In this document: in pieces, positions 5,343-59,134 of the stretch
Numbering within the stretch: the stretch's first letter is position 1
Layout: every line of letters begins with the position of its first letter
Source: a virus
DNA length: 64,000 bases
Reading direction: 5' to 3' (one strand)
IMG/VR virus record: IMGVR_UViG_3300042922_000923
Span: 67,111-131,110 of that record
Made by a program: the position numbers and the translations under genes
Notes under the pieces: generated by a model
What the model saw: the letters and a program-made list of their open reading frames with translations, nothing else
Database searches by the model: none
Told to the model about the DNA's origin: nothing

Positions 5343-6848
5343 TTATTGGGTATCATACTCAACATTTATCATGTAATAATAAAACTTTCCTGTATCGGCT
5401 GTGCTTGATTTTATTTTTAAAGTTGTACCATCTATATAACCATATCCTATGCCATCAATCTCATAGCCAGATATTCCCATGCCAACCGCGAAATACTTTG
5501 CAACAGCGTGGCCTAGATAGTAAGGGAATGTACCTACCGTTGTATCACTAGATGTTAAGGCGGAGGTGGTTTTGCAATAAAGTTCTAATATAACTCTTTT
5601 ATTTTTCTTTGTTATAACATTTCTAGTTCCTATTTGTGTGAAGCCACTTGCTAATGTAACTGATGATTTTATAATATTTATGTCATCCGAATATCCAAAA
5701 TAGGTGTTGTTATCTATATAACCCATGAATTTTGTTTTATCAATATTACTAAATTGTCCACTACCCGTAATTCCAGTAGTATCATAGTTAACTGTTGTTA
5801 AATATGAATTAGTGAGAGAAAAATATTTAGCTGAATTTTCACTGTCTGTGTCAAAATAAAAAAGATATGGATTAGTCGAAACGTTGGGTGCTTTATATAC
5901 TAATATATTATAAGAAGGGTATAATTCAGTAATAACTGGTCTATGGAGAGTTCCTATAACATAAAAAGCATATTGATATGAATCAGGACTACTTTTTGAA
6001 ATAATTGGGCTTCCATTTAATTTGCACCATATAGAGCCTTCTAATAAAGTTGTGTCCCATATCCATAAATGTATCTCAGTAAAAATACTAGTTCCCTCAG
6101 TATACCAGCCAATGTAATTATCAACGCCGAATATTTTAGTAAAATGGCAGTCGTTTGTCGTAACTTTAAACCCCATACCGGCAGTTGTTTTTCCTTTTAT
6201 TGTCATCTCGCTGAATCTTAATTCATATCCAGATACAACATTAAATCCAATCCCTGTGTTATTTAAATATTCTATACATTCAACAATTCCCCGTCTACCG
6301 TACGTAACATGAAGCCCTTCACCAGCTAAACTATTCATATCTAGTATTATATTTTTTATGTGTAAAAAATCCGAATCAGTGTTTATATCAATCATTTTAG
6401 AAACTGCCGAAACTGCTTTTATTGTTGCATAATTTAAATTCATTTTTATAGCATCTGTGATCGATAGTGTTGAACTTATTAAGTAAATTTGAGATTCGCT
6501 AGATTCTAATCTTAAATTATTTGCAATTGCATAATCTATAGCGCTTTGTAAATTAACTGTGTCGTCTGTTATTCCATCACCAATACAACCAAACATTTCA
6601 GGGCATACCCATTTTGTTTTCTTCGCTACATCTGACAATTGTGCAGTATTTTCATTTACTGCATTAACTAAATCTTTATTAGTAGTATTTAACTTACTAG
6701 TGTCACCAACTTCATTTGTATAAATATATTCTAAAGTTTTACCATTATTTAAGATAACTGCATCTCCAGAAGTATATACATCAACGTCCTCAACATCATC
6801 TGAATCTTCAAGTATTGCGTGGATACGTGCTTTTTTTAGGTTAGACAT
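5343..6848 (-). CDS. Tailspike/fibre with pectate-lyase-like beta-helix (putative depolymerase)
   Basis: PEMFGCIGDGITDDTVNLQSAID motif typical of the start of beta-helix tailspikes; at the end of the baseplate operon. Confidence 0.75.
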   Translation of the reverse strand: MSNLKKARIHAILEDSDDVEDVDVYTSGDAVILNNGKTLEYIYTNEVGDTSKLNTTNKDLVNAVNENTAQLSDVAKKTKWVCPEMFGCIGDGITDDTVNLQSAIDYAIANNLRLESSESQIYLISSTLSITDAIKMNLNYATIKAVSAVSKMIDINTDSDFLHIKNIILDMNSLAGEGLHVTYGRRGIVECIEYLNNTGIGFNVVSGYELRFSEMTIKGKTTAGMGFKVTTNDCHFTKIFGVDNYIGWYTEGTSIFTEIHLWIWDTTLLEGSIWCKLNGSPIISKSSPDSYQYAFYVIGTLHRPVITELYPSYNILVYKAPNVSTNPYLFYFDTDSENSAKYFSLTNSYLTTVNYDTTGITGSGQFSNIDKTKFMGYIDNNTYFGYSDDINIIKSSVTLASGFTQIGTRNVITKKNKRVILELYCKTTSALTSSDTTVGTFPYYLGHAVAKYFAVGMGISGYEIDGIGYGYIDGTTLKIKSSTADTGKFYYYMINVEYDTQ

Positions 6849-51940: not shown

Positions 51941-51969
51941 TTGACTACGTGTATTATTGGTAGTATACT
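51941..51969 (+). promoter_or_regulatory. Sigma-A early promoter P1
   Basis: TTGACT-N17-TATACT with upstream A/T tracts. Confidence 0.8.
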
Positions 51970-52061
51970 TAGTTCATAAGCAAGGGACAAACACAAAATA
52001 CAAATTACTTAATAACTTGTTTATGACAGTTTTACACCAAAAAATATTTTTAAAAAAGATA

Positions 52062-52090
52062 TTGACAACGTGTAAGATTGGGATTATAAT
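52062..52090 (+). promoter_or_regulatory. Sigma-A early promoter P2 (perfect consensus)
   Basis: TTGACA-N17-TATAAT with upstream A/T tracts. Confidence 0.9.
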
Positions 52091-52152: not shown

Positions 52153-52267
52153 TTGAATTAAGATTTTAGAAATAGAAATTTTGCGTTTCTATTAAGTTTA
52201 AATTGAAACTAAAATCTTTTAAATTAAATTAAATTCTTTATAGATTCATTATACAGTATATTCTGTA

Positions 52268-52587
52268 TAGTGAGTTTATATAAGGGTATTCAAAATTTAA
52301 ATTATTGGAGTTGATTTTATGAATAAATTACAATTTTTAGATAGAGAATACATAAAAAATGAGGTTATAAGACTTTTTAAAAATTCTATATATAAGCCTT
52401 TTAAATTTTCAGTTAATTTATTTAATAATACAGTGTGGGTATATTGTAACATACTAGAAACAAATAAATTCAGCGAAAAAATGATTAATATAGAATTACA
52501 GTTTACTAATTCAAATGAATTAAAGTTTGGAAAAGTAATTGAAAGTGCATTTTAATACCTATTGAATACCCTTATACAAACTCACTA
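52268..52587. repeat. 26-bp inverted repeat pair flanking ORF 52319-52555
   Basis: 52268-52293 tagtgagtttatataagggtattcaa versus 52562-52587 ttgaatacccttatacaaactcacta; 25/26 complementary. Confidence 0.9.
52319..52555 (+). CDS. Early hypothetical protein
   Basis: ORF with GGAG RBS. Confidence 0.65.
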   Translation: MNKLQFLDREYIKNEVIRLFKNSIYKPFKFSVNLFNNTVWVYCNILETNKFSEKMINIELQFTNSNELKFGKVIESAF

Positions 52588-52619
52588 GTGAGTAAATAAG
52601 AATAAAAGGAGATGCATGT

Positions 52620-52885
52620 ATATGTTATATGTTACAATGACTGATAAATTTATGAGTGGTTGGGGGCCTTGTGAAAATAAGATTAATAAATTAATATTTG
52701 AGTGTGAAAATAGAGAAGAGGCAGACATAGTTATGACTAATGCAGAAAATAGAGGCGATATGAAAAACATAAATTTAGCAACTAAAAAGCCTTATTACTC
52801 AACCTCTAGATACTACGCTCAAACTAAAAATAAAGAGGAATACCCTTCATGGTATAAACAAGGGTTTTTCAAAAAAGATAACTAG
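52620..52885 (+). CDS. Early hypothetical protein (start approximate)
   Basis: YVTMTDKFMSGWG; AAGGAG RBS; stop codon lies in hammerhead stem I. Confidence 0.65.
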
Positions 52886-52941
52886 CCTGACGAGTCTTTG
52901 AAAATTAAGACGAAACTGGAGAAGCTTCTCCAGTCGCTAGT
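52881..52941 (+). ncRNA. Hammerhead ribozyme, type I (HH1)
   Basis: ACUAGC-CUGACGA-GUCUU/AAGAC-GAAA-CUGGAGA/UCUCCAG-UC^GCUAGU; GUC cleavage triplet, predicted cut after 52935. Confidence 0.93.
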
Positions 52942-52976
52942 AATAGCAAGAATTTAATTTAAGGAGATGCATTAAC

Positions 52977-53339
52977 ATGAGTTTAAAAGAAAGATTTGAG
53001 GAAGTTCAAGAAAATATTAATAATTATGACAGAACAGAGGCTGTTGAAAACTTAAAGAGTATTGCTTCAGATTATGGACAAGAAAGAGAAGTTGATAGCT
53101 TTATTCATACCGATGACGTTGACGATTTTGTGGAAAGGCGTTTTCAGTCAGGAGGTTGGCAAGGTGTAGCATGTTGTTTAACTGACTTAATTCATAATCA
53201 AAGTGATGACTATTATAATATAGATGGTTACGAAAATTTAGAGTTAGTTACAGTCGATTTGCTACAAAATACTCTAGATGATTTAAAAAGAGCTTTATCT
53301 GATGAACTTGAAGAAGAAGAGGAAGAAGAACTCGACTAG
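52977..53339 (+). CDS. Highly acidic early protein
   Basis: D/E-rich, ends in EEEEEELD. Confidence 0.75.
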   Translation: MSLKERFEEVQENINNYDRTEAVENLKSIASDYGQEREVDSFIHTDDVDDFVERRFQSGGWQGVACCLTDLIHNQSDDYYNIDGYENLELVTVDLLQNTLDDLKRALSDELEEEEEEELD

Positions 53340-53401
53340 ACGAGTATAAACAGTGTTTAGGTCTAGTGCGTTGTAGAGGCTATAAAGCTTCTACAGGTAC
53401 A
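53330..53401 (+). ncRNA. Pistol ribozyme 1
   Basis: P1 ACUCG/CGAGU, pseudoknot ACUAGA/UCUAGU, AUAAACAG, P2 UGU/ACA, GCGUU, P3 hairpin, AGG^U (cut 53397/53398). Confidence 0.9.
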
Positions 53402-53430
53402 AAGAATTTAATTTAAAAGGAGATGTTTTT

Positions 53431-54060
53431 ATGAATATGACAGCTGAAACAACTAAATATATAAACTTTGGTGATGAAAACCCACTTAGCTATTATGGTA
53501 TCTGGTTAAGAAAAGATTCTGATAACGAAAAGTGTTTTGATATTGTAAAAGTAGATAATTTAGAGTGGTGCAGTGGTTCGACTGAAAATAGATATAGGCT
53601 TGAAGAAGGTTCTATTGACATTACTGATGATTGGATTAACTGGTCTGAGGTCTATAATTGTTATGACTTAAATGATGAATCTAGTGATGAAGAAAAGGCA
53701 ATTTCAGCAGTTCAAAATTATACTATTCTTGAATTTGGTTCTACAAAAGACGTAAAAACAACAAGAGAAGCTTTGAAGTTCCTAGAGGAACATGAAATAG
53801 TCCTTGGTGAAACTGTAGAAGATTATGAAAAGAGAATTGCTTCTGAGGTATTTGACATTTTAAACGATGCAGTAATGACTCTAGGAACTAATACAAATGA
53901 TTCCTTTATAGAAGATGAAGAGGAACTAAAGGAAGCTCAAAAGTTATTAAAACAACTTGAAGAGGAAGAAGAGAATCAAGAAGAATTATGTGATAAATAC
54001 AATTATGAACTTGATGACATTAAAGAGTATATAAGCGATACTTATGGAATGAAATATTAA
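53431..54060 (+). CDS. Acidic early protein
   Basis: 209-aa D/E-rich ORF with the conserved leader. Confidence 0.75.
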   Translation: MNMTAETTKYINFGDENPLSYYGIWLRKDSDNEKCFDIVKVDNLEWCSGSTENRYRLEEGSIDITDDWINWSEVYNCYDLNDESSDEEKAISAVQNYTILEFGSTKDVKTTREALKFLEEHEIVLGETVEDYEKRIASEVFDILNDAVMTLGTNTNDSFIEDEEELKEAQKLLKQLEEEEENQEELCDKYNYELDDIKEYISDTYGMKY

Positions 54061-54061
54061 A

Positions 54062-54131
54062 ACTCGACTATGCGAGTATAAATAGACCTTAAGCATAGTG
54101 CGTTATGGAGAATAACTTCTCCATAGGTGGT
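54062..54131 (+). ncRNA. Pistol ribozyme 2
   Basis: P1 ACUCG/CGAGU, pseudoknot ACUAUG/CAUAGU, P2 ACC/GGU, P3 AUGGAGAA/UUCUCCAU; cut 54127/54128. Confidence 0.9.
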
Positions 54132-54170
54132 AGTAATACCAAAAAGAATTTAATTTAAGGAGACGATATT

Positions 54171-54551
54171 ATGAAACTTGAAAAAGCTTTGGAAAATTTT
54201 AAAAATGAAAATAAGGAAAATTGGTTAATTACTTGTGTTGTTTGTGACATAGAGGATAAAGAACCAGAAGACCAACAAAGTTATATACATGACGTAATTA
54301 ATAATGGTTGTGAAAGTGGTATAGTGGGGTATCTTATATACTACACAGATACAGACGAATTTTTTGCTAAACATTATAAAGATATTCTTGAATTGATAAA
54401 CAATTATAGAGAGGAAACTGGAGAAGTACCAAACCTTTCTGAGTGGAATGCAGAAAAATTATCATGGTTTGCATATGAAAGAGCTATGTATCTATTAAAT
54501 GAATACTTAGAAGGATACGATATATCAGACGAAGATGAAGAACTCGACTAG
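54171..54551 (+). CDS. Acidic early protein
   Basis: GCESGIVGYLIYYTDT motif; acidic C-terminus ending EELD. Confidence 0.75.
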   Translation: MKLEKALENFKNENKENWLITCVVCDIEDKEPEDQQSYIHDVINNGCESGIVGYLIYYTDTDEFFAKHYKDILELINNYREETGEVPNLSEWNAEKLSWFAYERAMYLLNEYLEGYDISDEDEELD

Positions 54552-54614
54552 GCGAGTATAAATAGAACTTAAGCCTAGTGCGTTGGGGATAAGTGCGTAT
54601 AGATCCCCAGGTGT
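54542..54614 (+). ncRNA. Pistol ribozyme 3
   Basis: Pseudoknot ACUAGG/CCUAGU, P3 GGGGAU/AUCCCC; cut 54611/54612. Confidence 0.9.
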
Positions 54615-54644
54615 AAGAATTTAATTTAAAAGGAGAAGATTATC

Positions 54645-54983
54645 ATGAGTCAAAATTCAGTAGTAGAAGGAACAGTAATTAACTTATATGTGTTTGATTC
54701 AGCAGGAATACATGAAAAGCTTGCTAAAAAGTATAATGCATTAGTTAGATTCAGAAATAAGAAAACAATCCTTGAAAATGGTTGTTTAAATGCTGAAATA
54801 GAGTGCATTAGATACGTGAGAAAAGCAATAGAAAAGTCTTTTTGGGACACTAGAGATAGCATAGAGATAGTTACTAAGAACTATGGAACTTTTACAACTA
54901 GTAAGCCTGAGGAAATAAAAATTGATAGAAAGTATAATACTATAGAGTTTGGGAACTACTTCAATATACTTGATTGTAACTAG
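54645..54983 (+). CDS. Early hypothetical protein
   Basis: ORF with the conserved leader; stop codon in hammerhead stem I. Confidence 0.7.
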   Translation: MSQNSVVEGTVINLYVFDSAGIHEKLAKKYNALVRFRNKKTILENGCLNAEIECIRYVRKAIEKSFWDTRDSIEIVTKNYGTFTTSKPEEIKIDRKYNTIEFGNYFNILDCN

Positions 54984-55040
54984 CCTGACGAGTCTTTGAA
55001 AATTAAGACGAAACTGGAGAAGTCATTCTCTAGTCGCTAG
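54980..55040 (+). ncRNA. Hammerhead ribozyme, type I (HH2)
   Basis: CUAGC-CUGACGA-GUCUU/AAGAC-GAAA-CUGGAGAA/UUCUCUAG-UC^GCUAG; predicted cut after 55035. Confidence 0.93.
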
Positions 55041-55078
55041 AAGATAGCAGAGAATTTAATTTAAAAGGAGAAGATAAT

Positions 55079-55624
55079 ATGTTAAAAATTAATGTAAAAG
55101 GTATTGAAATAGCAATAGACTATAGTAAAGGTATAGAAGAAACTATGCTAATTACAGCTAATGGAAAATATATTCATAACTTAGAGTTAATTATTCAAGA
55201 AGATTACATTCTCTTTACATGGACATGTAGACAACATAAAGAGACAGTAATAAATATTAATAATGGACAACACATTGATAAAAACCTAGCTAGTTTTAAT
55301 GATTTCTTAGCTGATTATTTTACTATTACAAAAGAGAATAGTCTAGATGCAGATTGTGTTATGAACAGTCATAGGGTTGCACTAAAAGAAATTATTGTAA
55401 TTATGGAACAAGTTTTTATGCTTATAACTAAGGATTTATGCAAAAAAGAAGAACAGTTTATGCTAGAACTTAAAGACGATACTGCTAAAAATTCACTTCT
55501 AGAAGCAATAAGAATGTATCAACATTGGTTAAGTGAAGCGAATATGTCAGCTGATGAAGAAGAAGAGACAGAGGGTTATGCTGATTCACTAGAAGATATA
55601 GAAAAACAATTAACACACGACTAG
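55079..55624 (+). CDS. Early hypothetical protein with acidic C-terminus
   Basis: ORF with the conserved leader. Confidence 0.72.
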   Translation: MLKINVKGIEIAIDYSKGIEETMLITANGKYIHNLELIIQEDYILFTWTCRQHKETVININNGQHIDKNLASFNDFLADYFTITKENSLDADCVMNSHRVALKEIIVIMEQVFMLITKDLCKKEEQFMLELKDDTAKNSLLEAIRMYQHWLSEANMSADEEEETEGYADSLEDIEKQLTHD

Positions 55625-55683
55625 GCGTGTATAAATAGAGTTTAAGCCTAGTGCGTTATGGAGAATAACTTCTCCATAGGTAC
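55615..55683 (+). ncRNA. Pistol ribozyme 4
   Basis: P1 ACACG/CGUGU (compensatory), pseudoknot ACUAGG/CCUAGU; cut 55680/55681. Confidence 0.9.
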
Positions 55684-55714
55684 AAAGAATTTAATTTAAA
55701 AGGAGAAGATTATT

Positions 55715-56338
55715 ATGAAAAATTATATGCAAACTGAGACTTATATGGAACATTGTATAGAGGAATTTTATGACATATTAGAACAAGAAAGAGAATCTAA
55801 ATTACAGGACTTTCTAGACGTTGAATTTAATAAAAGTACTGAATTAGATATACTTTTAACTTTTGATGCTTTAATAGTACTATGTCGTGATAAGTATAAA
55901 GACTTCTTTGAAAAAACAAAAAAAGAATATGTTCATAGTTTATGTACTACTCTATCTGATGAAAATTGTGCAGAAATATTTAATGCTTATCGTGAGTACG
56001 AAACCGTTGAGTATACTAAGTATGAAGATGGAACAGACGTAACTTATTGTAATTATTGTGGAAAGCCTCTACTTAGAGATTCTGACATAAGATTTATAGA
56101 AGGTGATGGTTCTTATTGCTACGAACAAATAAAAGAAGTAAAAGATATATCAATAACTTGTATTGGTAAAGAATTATTGAACTGTGGTTATTCAGAGAAG
56201 GATATAATGTTTATGATAGGACCAGATTACAATGAATATTCAGAGGCTATATCTAGTGAAGAAGGTTTTGATAGTTATAACTTCTTATGTGAAAATGGTT
56301 ATGCAATGCCAGAAATATTCTGTACAACTGCTGAATAA
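55715..56338 (+). CDS. Acidic early protein with CxxC
   Basis: 207 aa; CNYCG motif. Confidence 0.72.
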   Translation: MKNYMQTETYMEHCIEEFYDILEQERESKLQDFLDVEFNKSTELDILLTFDALIVLCRDKYKDFFEKTKKEYVHSLCTTLSDENCAEIFNAYREYETVEYTKYEDGTDVTYCNYCGKPLLRDSDIRFIEGDGSYCYEQIKEVKDISITCIGKELLNCGYSEKDIMFMIGPDYNEYSEAISSEEGFDSYNFLCENGYAMPEIFCTTAE

Positions 56339-56346
56339 TATAAGAA

Positions 56347-56415
56347 ACACGACTAGGCGTGTATAAATAGAGTTTAGGCCTAGTGCGTTATGGAGAATAG
56401 CTTCTCCATAGGTAC
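56347..56415 (+). ncRNA. Pistol ribozyme 5
   Basis: Near-identical to pistol 4; cut 56412/56413. Confidence 0.9.
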
Positions 56416-56446
56416 AAAGAATTTAATTTAAAAGGAGAAGATTATT

Positions 56447-56872
56447 ATGAATACTGTTGTAGTAAATAGCTATGAATCTAATTTTACAGTGGAGTTTGAA
56501 AACTTACAAAAGGTTATAAAAAAAGAAGGTTGGCAGAGTGTAAAATACTTCTTAGACAATTACACTTATGACGATGGAGAAGACATTTATAATATATGTA
56601 GGTCTAATGGTTATGTTATAGATGAAAGTTTGACTAACGAGTGTCTAAGAAAATTAATTAAAGAAGATTATATTGTTAGAAATGAAAATCCTTGTTTTTT
56701 AAAACATGATTATCTTATAACAATATATAGCTATAAAGATGGAATGTATATAACTGATTGTAGTATTGATGCAGGAGAATTTTCAAGTACTATTGAGGAA
56801 GTTGAAAATATGCTACTTAGTGCTGGATTCAAAAGCATAGGATTACAAACTCGACTAGGCGAGGATAAATAG
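56447..56872 (+). CDS. Early hypothetical protein
   Basis: ORF reads into pistol 6 (…QTRLGEDK*). Confidence 0.7.
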   Translation: MNTVVVNSYESNFTVEFENLQKVIKKEGWQSVKYFLDNYTYDDGEDIYNICRSNGYVIDESLTNECLRKLIKEDYIVRNENPCFLKHDYLITIYSYKDGMYITDCSIDAGEFSSTIEEVENMLLSAGFKSIGLQTRLGEDK

Positions 56873-56922
56873 GACTTAAGCCTAGTGCGTTAGATAGGAT
56901 CTATATGGTTCTATCTAGGTGT
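56849..56922 (+). ncRNA. Pistol ribozyme 6
   Basis: P1 CUCG/CGAG, pseudoknot ACUAGG/CCUAGU, P3 AGAUAGGAUC/GGUUCUAUCU; cut 56919/56920. Confidence 0.85.
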
Positions 56923-56953
56923 AAGAATTTAATTTAAAAGGAGATGTATTAAT

Positions 56954-57415
56954 ATGAGTAAAGTTTATGTTGTAGAATGTCCAGAATTTAATGATTTTTT
57001 AGGTATGTTTGAAGAGGAAGAACTACGAGAAGAGACTTGTAGTATTTGTGGTAGTTCTTTATTTGTAAGAGATACTTGCACTGGTGATGAATATATTTGT
57101 GCTGATTGTGGTGATAAGATTGTAAAAAATCATATGGAAGCAAAGGAGCTTGATAGTGTTACAGGATACCCAGAGTGGATACTAGCAATATTAAGAGAGT
57201 CTGTTAACATTGATAGATATGATACGCAACATGATGAAGAATTTAATACTAAGTGGTCTAAAGACGAAGTGTTTGATTCTGTTATGAGGTATGAAGCAAC
57301 GTATAATCCTACTAAAATTAAGGAATTTATAAGAGATATATATGGCGTAGATTTATTTACTAAAAATCCAAAAGATGACACTAAATTATGTCTTGACACT
57401 TATAAACTACGTTAA
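56954..57415 (+). CDS. Early protein with zinc-ribbon-like motif
   Basis: CSICG...CADCG. Confidence 0.72.
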   Translation: MSKVYVVECPEFNDFLGMFEEEELREETCSICGSSLFVRDTCTGDEYICADCGDKIVKNHMEAKELDSVTGYPEWILAILRESVNIDRYDTQHDEEFNTKWSKDEVFDSVMRYEATYNPTKIKEFIRDIYGVDLFTKNPKDDTKLCLDTYKLR

Positions 57416-57425
57416 AAGTGTGAAG

Positions 57426-57493
57426 AGTCGTTGCAACGACTATAAACAGACCTTAGGTTGCAAGCGTTGAAGAGGTTAACCTCTTCAGGTGGT
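57426..57493 (+). ncRNA. Pistol ribozyme 7 (most divergent copy)
   Basis: P1 AGUCG/CGACU, pseudoknot UUGCAA/UUGCAA, P2 ACC/GGU, P3 GAAGAGG/CCUCUUC; cut 57489/57490. Confidence 0.9.
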
Positions 57494-57523
57494 AAGAATT
57501 TAATTTAAAAGGAGAAGATAAAT

Positions 57524-57787
57524 ATGAAGGAAATAAAGACGTTGATAAGAATTGCTAAGGACTGGGAATATGACTTCAAAGGTGACTTATTAGAAGGTAT
57601 TTTAGATAATGAGAGTATTAAATCATTTTTAGACACTCTAATTGATGAATGGATACCTGAATGGAAAGAAGAAAATCCTGAAAATGAAGAGATGTATGAT
57701 AGATATAGTTGCAGACTAGAAGCTTTAAATAAAGAAGTAATAGAAGAAGAATATGCAGTTATTCAAGAACTTATAGCATTATCTTAG
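57524..57787 (+). CDS. Small acidic early protein
   Basis: D/E-rich ORF with the conserved leader. Confidence 0.72.
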   Translation: MKEIKTLIRIAKDWEYDFKGDLLEGILDNESIKSFLDTLIDEWIPEWKEENPENEEMYDRYSCRLEALNKEVIEEEYAVIQELIALS

Positions 57788-57795
57788 ATGTAGAG

Positions 57796-58014
57796 GTGAG
57801 TATTATGAATAAGTCTAATTGGTTAATTGAAGGTCTAGAGTATGCTAAAAGGAATAAAATAGTTAGTTTTGTTATTGTAGGCTGCAAGTTAAAATATGCA
57901 ACAACTTATCCAGTAGAAGGAAGTTTTAAGCACATAATCGACTTAGAAAACAATAGCGAAACTGTAATTCCATTAAAGGGAATAATAAAGAGTGGAATTT
58001 ATAACATTGGATAA
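57796..58014 (+). CDS. Small hypothetical protein
   Basis: ORF with GAGGTG; start at 57796 or 57805. Confidence 0.6.
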   Translation: MSIMNKSNWLIEGLEYAKRNKIVSFVIVGCKLKYATTYPVEGSFKHIIDLENNSETVIPLKGIIKSGIYNIG

Positions 58015-58032
58015 ATAAATATTTTTTTACCA

Positions 58033-58061
58033 TTGACTACGTGTAAAAATGGGAGTATAAT
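58033..58061 (+). promoter_or_regulatory. Internal sigma-A early promoter P3
   Basis: TTGACT-N17-TATAAT; spacer begins ACGTGTA as in P1 and P2. Confidence 0.85.
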
Positions 58062-58094
58062 AAAAGCATATTAAGAGATTGGAGATGTTGATAA

Positions 58095-58472
58095 ATGAGT
58101 AATATAACAGAAATTTTAGAAAGAGAATATAAAAAGGCTACATGTGACAAGAAAGTGCTAGTGGAAAAAGCTACAGCAAGACTAAGAACTCTTAGCATCA
58201 ATTTCAAATCATTTTTAAGAACTAAACAGTTACCAGCAAGAGAGTTTCCTAAAAGCTTATTCCATTATCAAGGTGTACAACATAGCTTTAATTTTAAAAT
58301 AAAGGATTCAGGAAATACTATTGAGGTTTGTATGTATACTATCGACATTGATAATTCAAATAATAATAGTACACAAACGTATAAAATAAGTAGTTTAAGT
58401 GATATTGATAACGAAAAATTTGATTCATGGGTATTATCTAATGCAATGGAACAATTCTTTAGAGAAAATTAA
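58095..58472 (+). CDS. Early hypothetical protein
   Basis: ORF with GGAG after P3. Confidence 0.7.
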   Translation: MSNITEILEREYKKATCDKKVLVEKATARLRTLSINFKSFLRTKQLPAREFPKSLFHYQGVQHSFNFKIKDSGNTIEVCMYTIDIDNSNNNSTQTYKISSLSDIDNEKFDSWVLSNAMEQFFREN

Positions 58473-58543
58473 ACTCAACTAAGTGAGTATAAATAGTGGT
58501 TAGGCTTAGTGCGTTGGAGAGGTATAGTGCTTCTCCAGGTCCA
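58473..58543 (+). ncRNA. Pistol ribozyme 8
   Basis: P1 ACUCA/UGAGU, pseudoknot ACUAAG/CUUAGU, P2 UGG/CCA, P3 GGAGAGGUA/UGCUUCUCC; cut 58539/58540. Confidence 0.9.
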
Positions 58544-58576
58544 AAATAAAATTTAATTTAGAAGGAGAAGATTATT

Positions 58577-59134
58577 ATGGGTACTTTAACAAAAAAACAA
58601 GAAGGAATAATTTCTAAGGTGGTTAATTCAGAGACTATAGCTAAAGACTGGTTAAAGACTCCTTTTAAGACTACTAATGGAATTTTAGCTTGCGATGGAT
58701 ACAGAGTATTATCAAAATCTATTAATGCTAGTGAAGTTTCTGGAGACTACAAGTATGTTACTAGGTTTCTAGAACAGGATGACAAATTAAAAGTTGTTGA
58801 TATTAAATTAAAAAGAACTGAGGTTATAAAGGCGATAACAGGTACTAAAAATGATGTAATAGTACTTACTTCTACAGGTTCAAAATTTGAGATTATAAAT
58901 ATAGTACAAAATAAAGTACTCTATGAAACTGAGTTTAAAGGTAAAAAGTGTTATATAGGTATAAATGCTAAATATCTTAGGGATGCATTAAACTTTATAA
59001 GCAGCAAGGAAGTAGAAATATCTTTTGGAAACAAAATATCACAAATCACATTTCTAGCTCCTGAGTATAATTGCATGGTGTTACCAATAAGATTATGTAA
59101 TAAAGAATGGATAGCTAATGTAGAGAACAGATAA
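58577..59134 (+). CDS. DNA polymerase III beta-clamp-like protein (partial, C-terminal domains)
   Basis: ACDGYRV (cf. ATDGHRL), IGINAKYLRDAL (cf. IGFNxxYLxDAL) and MVLPIRL (cf. LVMPxR). Confidence 0.65.
   Translation: MGTLTKKQEGIISKVVNSETIAKDWLKTPFKTTNGILACDGYRVLSKSINASEVSGDYKYVTRFLEQDDKLKVVDIKLKRTEVIKAITGTKNDVIVLTSTGSKFEIINIVQNKVLYETEFKGKKCYIGINAKYLRDALNFISSKEVEISFGNKISQITFLAPEYNCMVLPIRLCNKEWIANVENR

Follow-up and report, generated by a model that had tools for sequence, protein, structure and literature searches.

The 64,000-nucleotide stretch of viral DNA analyzed here (hereafter the window; positions 67,111 to 131,110 of the IMG/VR record IMGVR_UViG_3300042922_000923) carries eight pistol self-cleaving ribozymes within 5.2 kb of one gene block, and the way in which these copies differ from one another argues for selection on their RNA structure. 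We consider it highly likely that the copies have been selected as active ribozymes. The explanation that best accounts for the locus as a whole, to which we give a probability of roughly 0.7, is that fold-selected pistols cut an early polycistronic transcript at its gene junctions. At its gathering thresholds, Rfam matched the window in eight places and no more; each match is to Pistol (RF02679), lies on the + strand, and covers the complete model (positions 1–68 of 68). The reading of eight pistol copies previously made from the sequence alone is thus borne out, as the scores (53.8–68.3 bits) exceed the gathering score of 34.5 in 8 of 8 copies; the same search found no further pistol in the rest of the 131,110-bp record. 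All of the copies, referred to below by their start positions, lie in short gaps between co-directional small genes or overlap the stop codon of the gene upstream.

The eight copies were aligned over 77 columns, and the published pistol architecture was laid on this alignment as 22 proposed pairs: P1 (5 bp), a pseudoknot (6 bp) joining the P1 loop to the P2-P3 junction, P2 (3 bp), and P3 (8 bp). Among the 176 cells so defined, 97.2% were paired as compared to 76.5% in shuffled alignments, and changes on both sides were seen in 17 of the 22 pairs as compared to 7.3 in the shuffles; none of 500 shuffles reached either value, and sliding the 3' partners by 1–3 columns lowered pairing to 29–41%. 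The pseudoknot was paired in 100% of its 48 cells, with all six pairs compensatory, and P3 was also 100% paired (five of eight pairs compensatory). P1, whose 5 bp close a 6-nt loop, was paired in 97.5% of cells (three of five pairs compensatory), and P2, which is 2–3 bp long, in 83.3% (three of three). Five cells were unpaired: the outermost P2 pair accounts for four of them, and the A1.G16 mismatch in copy 56849 for the fifth. When differences at paired sites were counted over the 28 possible copy pairs, 191 were compensated, 10 were wobbles, and 26 were broken. RNAfold cannot represent P1 and the pseudoknot at the same time; applied to single copies, it predicted P3 in all eight, the pseudoknot helix in seven, and P1 in one. 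The pairing pattern in the eight copies is confirmed to lie far beyond chance.

All of the helix variants listed in the sequence-only reading are present in this alignment. P1 occurs as ACUCG/CGAGU (three copies), ACUCG/CGAGG with the A1.G16 mismatch (one), ACACG/CGUGU (two), AGUCG/CGACU (one), and ACUCA/UGAGU (one). The pseudoknot occurs as ACUAGG/CCUAGU in four copies and as ACUAGA/UCUAGU, ACUAUG/CAUAGU, ACUAAG/CUUAGU, and UUGCAA/UUGCAA in one copy each. P2 is 3 bp in four copies (ACC/GGU in two, UGU/ACA and UGG/CCA in one each) and 2 bp in four (AC/GU and GU/AC, two each), and P3 takes six distinct sequences among the eight copies, one of them common to 54062, 55615, and 56347. The unpaired core (AUAAAYAG, UUARG, GCGUU, and AGGU) is fixed in all eight copies, just as had been read: 17 of its 19 columns are invariant, the exceptions being the Y and the R, as compared to 9 of the 44 paired columns. 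Every highly conserved (upper-case) position of the Rfam consensus, including the GU junction, is retained in 8 of 8 copies. It is to these upper-case positions that the core nucleotides were matched here, and not to the ten highly conserved unpaired nucleotides named for the class in Harris 2015 (PMC4604425). A GGU, the first G of which closes P3, is invariant in the eight copies and provides the two-nucleotide GU between P3 and P2, the cleavage junction whose length is described in that paper as strictly conserved in pistols. The eight pistols are intact and are very probably all active.

The covariation survives the addition of homologues, a check that had been fixed beforehand as one able to refute it. 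Homologues were fetched by scanning IMG/VR for the conserved core with the helix positions left free, which returned 95 stretches, and a covariance model was built from the eight copies using nested helices only, the pseudoknot being left out. With this model, 125 pistols were detected; they came from the window and from 94 of the 95 loci, and the GC content of their contigs ranges over 30–65%. In the 102 distinct sequences, 96.8% of 2108 cells were paired and 21 of the 22 pairs were compensatory; none of 500 shuffles attained the observed pairing, the covariation score, or the number of pairs with changes on both sides, one attained the count of further pair types, and slid controls were 31–42% paired. 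The search model did not contain the pseudoknot, so an alignment based on that model could not have favored it; even so, the pseudoknot was 95.7–96.1% paired, and six of its six pairs covaried. In addition, mutual information with average product correction, a ranking of column pairs that proposes no structure and that was run on the first 89-sequence alignment, placed proposed pairs, including all six of the pseudoknot, at ranks 1–17 of 1830.

Because pairing is kept while the sequence changes, these data carry the signature of selection on pairing and hence of a functional RNA fold, and the claim of selection on RNA structure is supported by the pairing itself, the compensated differences, the homologues, and the structure-free ranking. 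The sequence-only reading had also set functional ribozymes against recent duplications as though one excluded the other; selection on the RNA fold stands, but the contrast is false. Copies 55615 and 56347 differ at only 2 of 71 positions (97% identity), neither of them in a helix, so that all helices are common to both, and with the leader included they are 98% identical over 105 nt; they thus represent a recent duplicate or a gene conversion. Most copy pairs are 55–87% identical at the DNA level, and the array is a mixture of old, diverged copies with at least one recent duplication or gene conversion. Much of the covariation is standing variation of the pistol family that has been sorted among the copies. 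The sublineage of copy 57426 (AGUCG/UUGCAA) was also found in a related contig (G001, described below) and in locus L021, so the compensatory changes need not have arisen in this genome, and the ACUCG/ACUAGG version is widespread in unrelated contigs. Diversification of the helices as a safeguard against mispairing or recombination between neighbors was rejected, as no helix differs between 55615 and 56347, which are neighbors, and one pseudoknot sequence recurs in four copies.

The array also holds two type-I hammerhead-like elements, bringing the total to ten ribozymes in 5.7 kb. Every core position of the hammerhead (CUGANGA...GAAA...UH, three stems, stem I open) was matched in both, and the minimum-energy fold of each is the three-way junction (frequency 0.40 and 0.56, z −3.45 and −3.30). 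Behind all ten ribozymes stands a common leader, (A)GAAUUUAAUUUAAAAGGAG, followed ∼10 nt later by an AUG. The coupling is strict in both directions, with 10 of 10 ribozymes followed by the leader and 10 of 10 leaders preceded by a ribozyme, and the junction is either direct or has a spacer of up to 12 nt. A search for the leader gave 8 matches at no more than 3 mismatches (0.19 expected) plus two variants, and neither the leader nor the ribozyme-leader cassette was found elsewhere in the record. When viral contigs were scanned for the leader only, the pattern, which is AT-rich and of low complexity, matched 115 stretches, with a single match in every listed locus but L047, and these matches are given no weight. 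From the predicted cut, the distance is 20–31 nt to the GGAG and 33–43 nt to the AUG. Promoters were assigned as consensus matches only, the best on the + strand being those at 51941, 52062, and 58033; no convincing + strand terminator was found between them, and pistol 8 lies downstream of the internal match.

We propose that the four helices are free in sequence and are held to pairing by purifying selection, with the core and the GU junction fixed, and that pistols and hammerheads together would constitutively self-cleave a polycistronic early transcript at almost every gene junction. Because both classes cut near their 3' edge, the ribozyme body would stay on the upstream RNA, which would retain a folded ribozyme with a 2',3'-cyclic phosphate at its 3' end; the downstream message would begin with a 5'-OH and 5–6 nt of ribozyme and continue into a uniform, AU-rich, unstructured leader with a strong Shine-Dalgarno sequence. 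The presence of two unrelated ribozyme classes in the same slot makes it likely that cleavage itself is the selected activity, and we regard processing into single-gene messages with a standard leader as the probable role of the ribozymes, albeit with clearly less assurance than their selection as ribozymes. A more tentative proposal, for which we would put the odds a little short of even, is that selection acts on a modular cassette in which any fast ribozyme cutting at its 3' edge is joined to an invariant leader and ribosome-binding site and placed before nearly every early gene. If this is true, each gene would be released as a separate message whose 5' end is always the same, regardless of the upstream sequence, in a natural counterpart of engineered insulators; genes could be reshuffled between phages without retuning of their expression, pistols and hammerheads would be interchangeable parts, and a 14-nt complement of the leader in the 5' untranslated region (see below) could add further control.

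Several points count against this interpretation. The shuffle control takes no account of relatedness. Of the 17 pairs with changes on both sides, several depend on one divergent copy, with 57426 supplying every change at pseudoknot columns 6–9, and copies 55615 and 56347, being near-identical, do not contribute independent evidence as a pair. Among the homologues, conservation of the core holds by construction because the fetch pattern fixes the core (and the P2 spacing), and the nested helices in their alignment were fitted by the model. The hammerhead-like elements score 21.1 and 14.1 bits, below the RF00163 cut-off of 34, because their long stem II and III loops cost score, and they are therefore named hammerhead-like rather than curated members of the family. 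Self-cleavage in vivo, a single polycistronic transcript, and the purpose of cutting are all deduced from DNA, and the phage is uncultured and known from metagenomic DNA. Unmasking of the ribosome-binding site by cleavage was set aside as an unsupported purpose: the predicted probability that the Shine-Dalgarno sequence is unpaired is similar in the precursor (0.40–0.91) and in the product (0.46–0.83), so cutting is not needed to expose it. Finally, the 5'-OH product of the Bacillus glmS ribozyme is a target of RNase J1, and by analogy cutting could destabilize the downstream message rather than mature it.

Destabilization is at the center of one alternative, in which the cuts shorten the life of early messages through their 5'-OH ends and a host 5' exonuclease, so that the take-over genes switch themselves off. 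The genes are indeed small, of an early type, and placed behind consensus promoters, and glmS offers a precedent, as cleavage followed by degradation by cellular RNases is described in a 2019 review (PMC6765202) as the only well-understood bacterial case. However, an invariant leader with a perfect Shine-Dalgarno sequence so close to the new 5' end looks built for efficient translation, a bound ribosome possibly protects that end, and ∼100 nt per gene is a cost that plain instability would not need; we consider this alternative unlikely. It is decidedly improbable that the fold was selected for a non-catalytic role (3'-end protection, a protein-binding site, or translation coupling) with cleavage incidental or absent. 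Although the tightest family-wide link is to the upstream stop codon (median 1 nt), and 26 of 93 upstream frames in the family and 4 of 8 upstream open reading frames (ORFs) here end inside the pistol, an element with a purely structural role could do without the retention of every Rfam-conserved position and the GU junction in all eight copies, hammerheads with a different fold occupy the same slot, and a protective 3' structure becomes terminal only once the RNA has been cut.

A role at the DNA level, in which the ribozyme-leader repeats (∼105 bp) act as homology handles for the swapping of gene cassettes and RNA activity is secondary, is slightly easier to entertain but still doubtful. It would account for repeats that end exactly at the ribozyme plus leader and for a gene order that differs between the window and G001 despite nine homologous pairs and no orthologous ribozyme pair; compensatory change, in contrast, lowers DNA identity between copies and is meaningless at the DNA level, and the two roles are not mutually exclusive. 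We are just as skeptical of the extension made in the sequence-only reading, by which a P2 of 2 or 3 bp could set the cleavage rate for each gene and so tune its expression. The copies divide evenly between the two lengths. The outer P2 position is commonly unpaired in the family (21 of 102 distinct sequences), and the need to release the 3' product would account for a short P2 just as well. Moreover, projected pistol rates exceed 10 per minute under physiological conditions (Harris 2015, PMC4604425), which is fast relative to mRNA lifetimes, so modest differences in rate may not matter. Least credible of all is that the copies are recent DNA repeats without RNA selection, their covariation an accident of shared ancestry. 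One pistol pair is 97% identical and the hammerheads share 46 identical nucleotides, but neutral decay would break pairs, whereas 191 of 227 differences at paired sites are compensated; the slid controls collapse, and covariation at these pairs extends to 102 distinct sequences whose contigs span 30–65% GC. Pistols selected for their fold and cutting an early polycistron at its gene junctions thus remain the explanation that we prefer. The features of the array are given in Table 1, in which the pistol cut positions were placed from the GU junction of the family (Harris 2015, PMC4604425).

Table 1. Ribozymes, leaders, and promoter matches of the array in window coordinates, with predicted cut sites and start codons.
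Feature	Position	Strand	Score (bits)	Predicted cut or start codon	Remarks
Type-I hammerhead-like 1	52881..52941	+	21.1 (RF00163)	cut before 52936	core CUGACGAG..CGAAAC..GUC
Type-I hammerhead-like 2	54979..55041	+	14.1 (RF00163)		46 nt common with copy 1
Pistol 1	53330..53402	+	60.5	3' product start 53398	P1 ACUCG/CGAGU; pseudoknot ACUAGA/UCUAGU; P2 UGU/ACA
Pistol 2	54062..54132	+	68.3	3' product start 54128	P1 ACUCG/CGAGU; pseudoknot ACUAUG/CAUAGU; P2 ACC/GGU
Pistol 3	54542..54616	+	65.1	3' product start 54612	P1 ACUCG/CGAGU; pseudoknot ACUAGG/CCUAGU; P2 AC/GU (2 bp)
Pistol 4	55615..55685	+	64.5	3' product start 55681	P1 ACACG/CGUGU; pseudoknot ACUAGG/CCUAGU; P2 GU/AC (2 bp)
Pistol 5	56347..56417	+	63.9	3' product start 56413	near-duplicate of pistol 4
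Pistol 6	56849..56924	+	59.1	3' product start 56920	P1 ACUCG/CGAGG (terminal A.G mismatch); pseudoknot ACUAGG/CCUAGU; P2 AC/GU
Pistol 7	57426..57494	+	64.1	3' product start 57490	divergent sublineage; P1 AGUCG/CGACU; pseudoknot UUGCAA/UUGCAA; P2 ACC/GGU
Pistol 8	58473..58544	+	53.8	3' product start 58540	P1 ACUCA/UGAGU; pseudoknot ACUAAG/CUUAGU; P2 UGG/CCA
Leader after hammerhead 1	52949..52966	+			variant (…GAAUUUAAUUUAAGGAG)
Leader after pistol 1	53404..53422	+		ATG 53431	GAAUUUAAUUUAAAAGGAG
Leader after pistol 2	54145..54162	+		ATG 54171	variant; 12-nt longer spacer
Leader after pistol 3	54617..54635	+		ATG 54645	
Leader after hammerhead 2	55052..55070	+		ATG 55079	
Leader after pistol 4	55687..55705	+		ATG 55715	
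Leader after pistol 5	56419..56437	+		ATG 56447	
Leader after pistol 6	56925..56943	+		ATG 56954	
Leader after pistol 7	57496..57514	+		ATG 57524	
Leader after pistol 8	58549..58567	+		ATG 58577	variant (2 mismatches)
Twin sigma-70-type promoter matches	51941..52090	+			51941, 10/12 and 52062, 12/12 consensus positions; upstream of array
Internal promoter match	58033..58061	+			11/12 consensus positions; between pistols 7 and 8

The two hammerhead-like elements are alike in one half only. Positions 54977–55022 are 100% identical to 52879–52924 (46 nt), a stretch that includes the last codons of the upstream ORFs, and stem III differs; from this pattern, the 5' halves look like the product of a recent duplication or conversion of that half alone. 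A separate observation concerns the leader. The 5' untranslated region of the operon, downstream of the twin promoters, contains an exact 14-nt complement of the leader, TTAAATTAAATTCT (52224–52237, + strand), which is the sole + strand match in the 64 kb. The 14-nt pattern had 11 matches in total as compared to 0.55 expected, nine of which are the leaders on the other strand, and the stretch is also present in G001. This putative element could pair with the leaders in the unprocessed transcript.

The upstream ORFs that end inside a pistol (4 of 8) do so at a TAG in the P1 loop (53339, 54551, and 55624) or at the UAG of AUAAAUAG (56872), which would place a ribosome that terminates there over P1 and the pseudoknot; in 5 of 8 pistols, the first 24 nt contain stop codons in all three frames. 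The position of pistols relative to genes was surveyed in the first 80 loci plus the window, which gave 93 distinct contexts, an upstream frame being defined as at least 60 open codons before a stop with no start codon required. A same-strand open frame ended no more than 50 nt upstream in 72 of the 93 (median 1 nt), as compared to 524 of 3000 random positions; 61 of these frames ended between −24 and +12, and the 26 ending inside the pistol were cited above. An ORF started no more than 50 nt downstream in 46 of 93 contexts, as compared to 653 of 3000 random positions.

The related contig G001 (39 kb, 26% complete) carries seven pistols with the same leader and the same twin promoters, and a search of metagenome contigs for the ribozyme-leader junction pattern found just one contig, the same record as G001. 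The nine gene pairs that are homologous between the two arrays have 25–59% identity and stand in a different order, and no pistols share gene neighbors between the window and G001, so that an orthologous pair cannot be defined; with gene order shuffled and no neighbors in common, ribozymes and genes therefore reassort. Some pistols in G001 (L047 1–69, 306–374, and 1884–1960) deviate from the consensus: one has GAGUU for GCGUU, another AGAU for AGGU, and a third AUGU together with two mismatches in the pseudoknot. Activity may be weakened or lost in these copies, but AGAU was seen in unrelated loci too and is perhaps tolerated. One further slot in G001, after a stop codon and before a leader (L104:10002–10090), is occupied by a strongly structured two-hairpin element (minimum energy −29.9 kcal/mol, z −6.3) that matched no Rfam family at E values up to 1. 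As every other cassette slot holds a self-cleaving ribozyme, we consider this element a candidate ribozyme of a kind not yet catalogued.

The record, of which the window forms the right-hand 64 kb, has an estimated completeness of 90%. Its DNA has a GC content of ∼30%, and the four sequencing runs listed for it, two of which may be its source, are all DNA from soil metagenomes. PHROGs identified structural genes (large terminase, portal, major head protein, and tail sheath) as well as a sigma factor. Since the terminase shares ∼50% identity with its counterparts in the Bacillus phages SP-10, Goe26, Nachito, and SPO1 and is accompanied by this structural gene set, the phage is an uncultured SPO1-like (Herelleviridae-type) myovirus, presumably of low-GC Gram-positive bacteria. 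Five of the ten array genes had PHROG matches, four to families of unknown function and one to a sliding-clamp-like family, and DUF7222 alone passed its cut-off in Pfam. The sole array gene with a functional hint is the one after pistol 8 (58577–59134, + strand), whose product weakly resembles DNA polymerase sliding clamps in their C-terminal domain (PHROG 947, E 3.1e-9; Pfam DNA_pol3_beta_3, 26.5 bits against a cut-off of 27). No pair of array genes within the window appeared paralogous at E ≤ 0.001, a megablast of the array against the phage collection gave no match, and a sensitive blastn of one cassette gave just a 42-nt partial match, in a Cellulosimicrobium phage. Near the start of the block, a long inverted repeat (52268–52592) flanks the ORF at 52319–52555 on both sides; in G001 the same two arms (L104 ∼5930–6030) fold into a simple hairpin that encloses no ORF. 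Either a gene has been inserted in a hairpin loop, it would seem, or the first junction is processed by a protein enzyme of the RNase III type.

The pistol fold and its covariation have been published before, as have, since 2011, ribozyme clusters in phage operons, and the covariation described here re-confirms a known fold. The helices and pseudoknot of pistols were first inferred from extensive covariation among 449–500 representatives, and in a Lysinibacillus pistol, P1 or pseudoknot mutants lose activity and regain it upon restoration of pairing (Harris 2015, PMC4604425). Our copies have the same architecture of P1 hairpin, 6-bp pseudoknot, P2, P3, fixed core, and fixed-length GU junction, and share the bias of the class to phages and Firmicutes; what sets them apart is that a single operon holds eight of them within 5.2 kb and that all are joined to a common leader. 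Clustered hammerheads that flank single genes or short gene blocks in prophages have been described, with transcript processing proposed as their function and in vitro cleavage reported for tandem arrangements (Perreault 2011, PMC3088659). There, too, several self-cleaving ribozymes punctuate one phage transcript, but the array in the window consists mostly of pistols, is denser, and has a near-invariant leader and ribosome-binding site after every ribozyme. No description of such strict coupling of ribozymes to an invariant leader was found in the literature searched, the scope of which did not extend to Weinberg 2015 and supplements. The glmS ribozyme likewise self-cleaves in a Gram-positive mRNA leader and yields a 5'-OH product with a defined fate; it is, however, metabolite-dependent and leads to decay, whereas nothing suggests a ligand here, and the 2019 review that covers it (PMC6765202) still calls the biological role of self-cleaving ribozymes in bacteria and phages largely elusive.

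What is particular to this locus is the presence of ten ribozymes in 5.7 kb and their strict coupling to one invariant leader. With a compensatory series of eight variants, two hammerheads in the same slot, and an invariant leader, it constitutes a compact natural test set in which maturation, insulation, and timed decay are the candidate purposes of cutting. Two systems outside the known ribozyme clusters offer further comparison. Phage T7 has RNase III sites between its early genes, and its early polycistron is likewise cut at intergenic structures into gene-length messages with structured upstream 3' ends; T7 uses a host protein enzyme acting on hairpins, whereas here the RNA would cut itself and leave 5'-OH and cyclic-phosphate ends. 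RiboJ is an engineered synthetic ribozyme insulator, in which a self-cleaving ribozyme precedes a standard ribosome-binding site and thereby frees the 5' leader from any influence of the upstream sequence, and the cassettes described here may be its natural counterpart.

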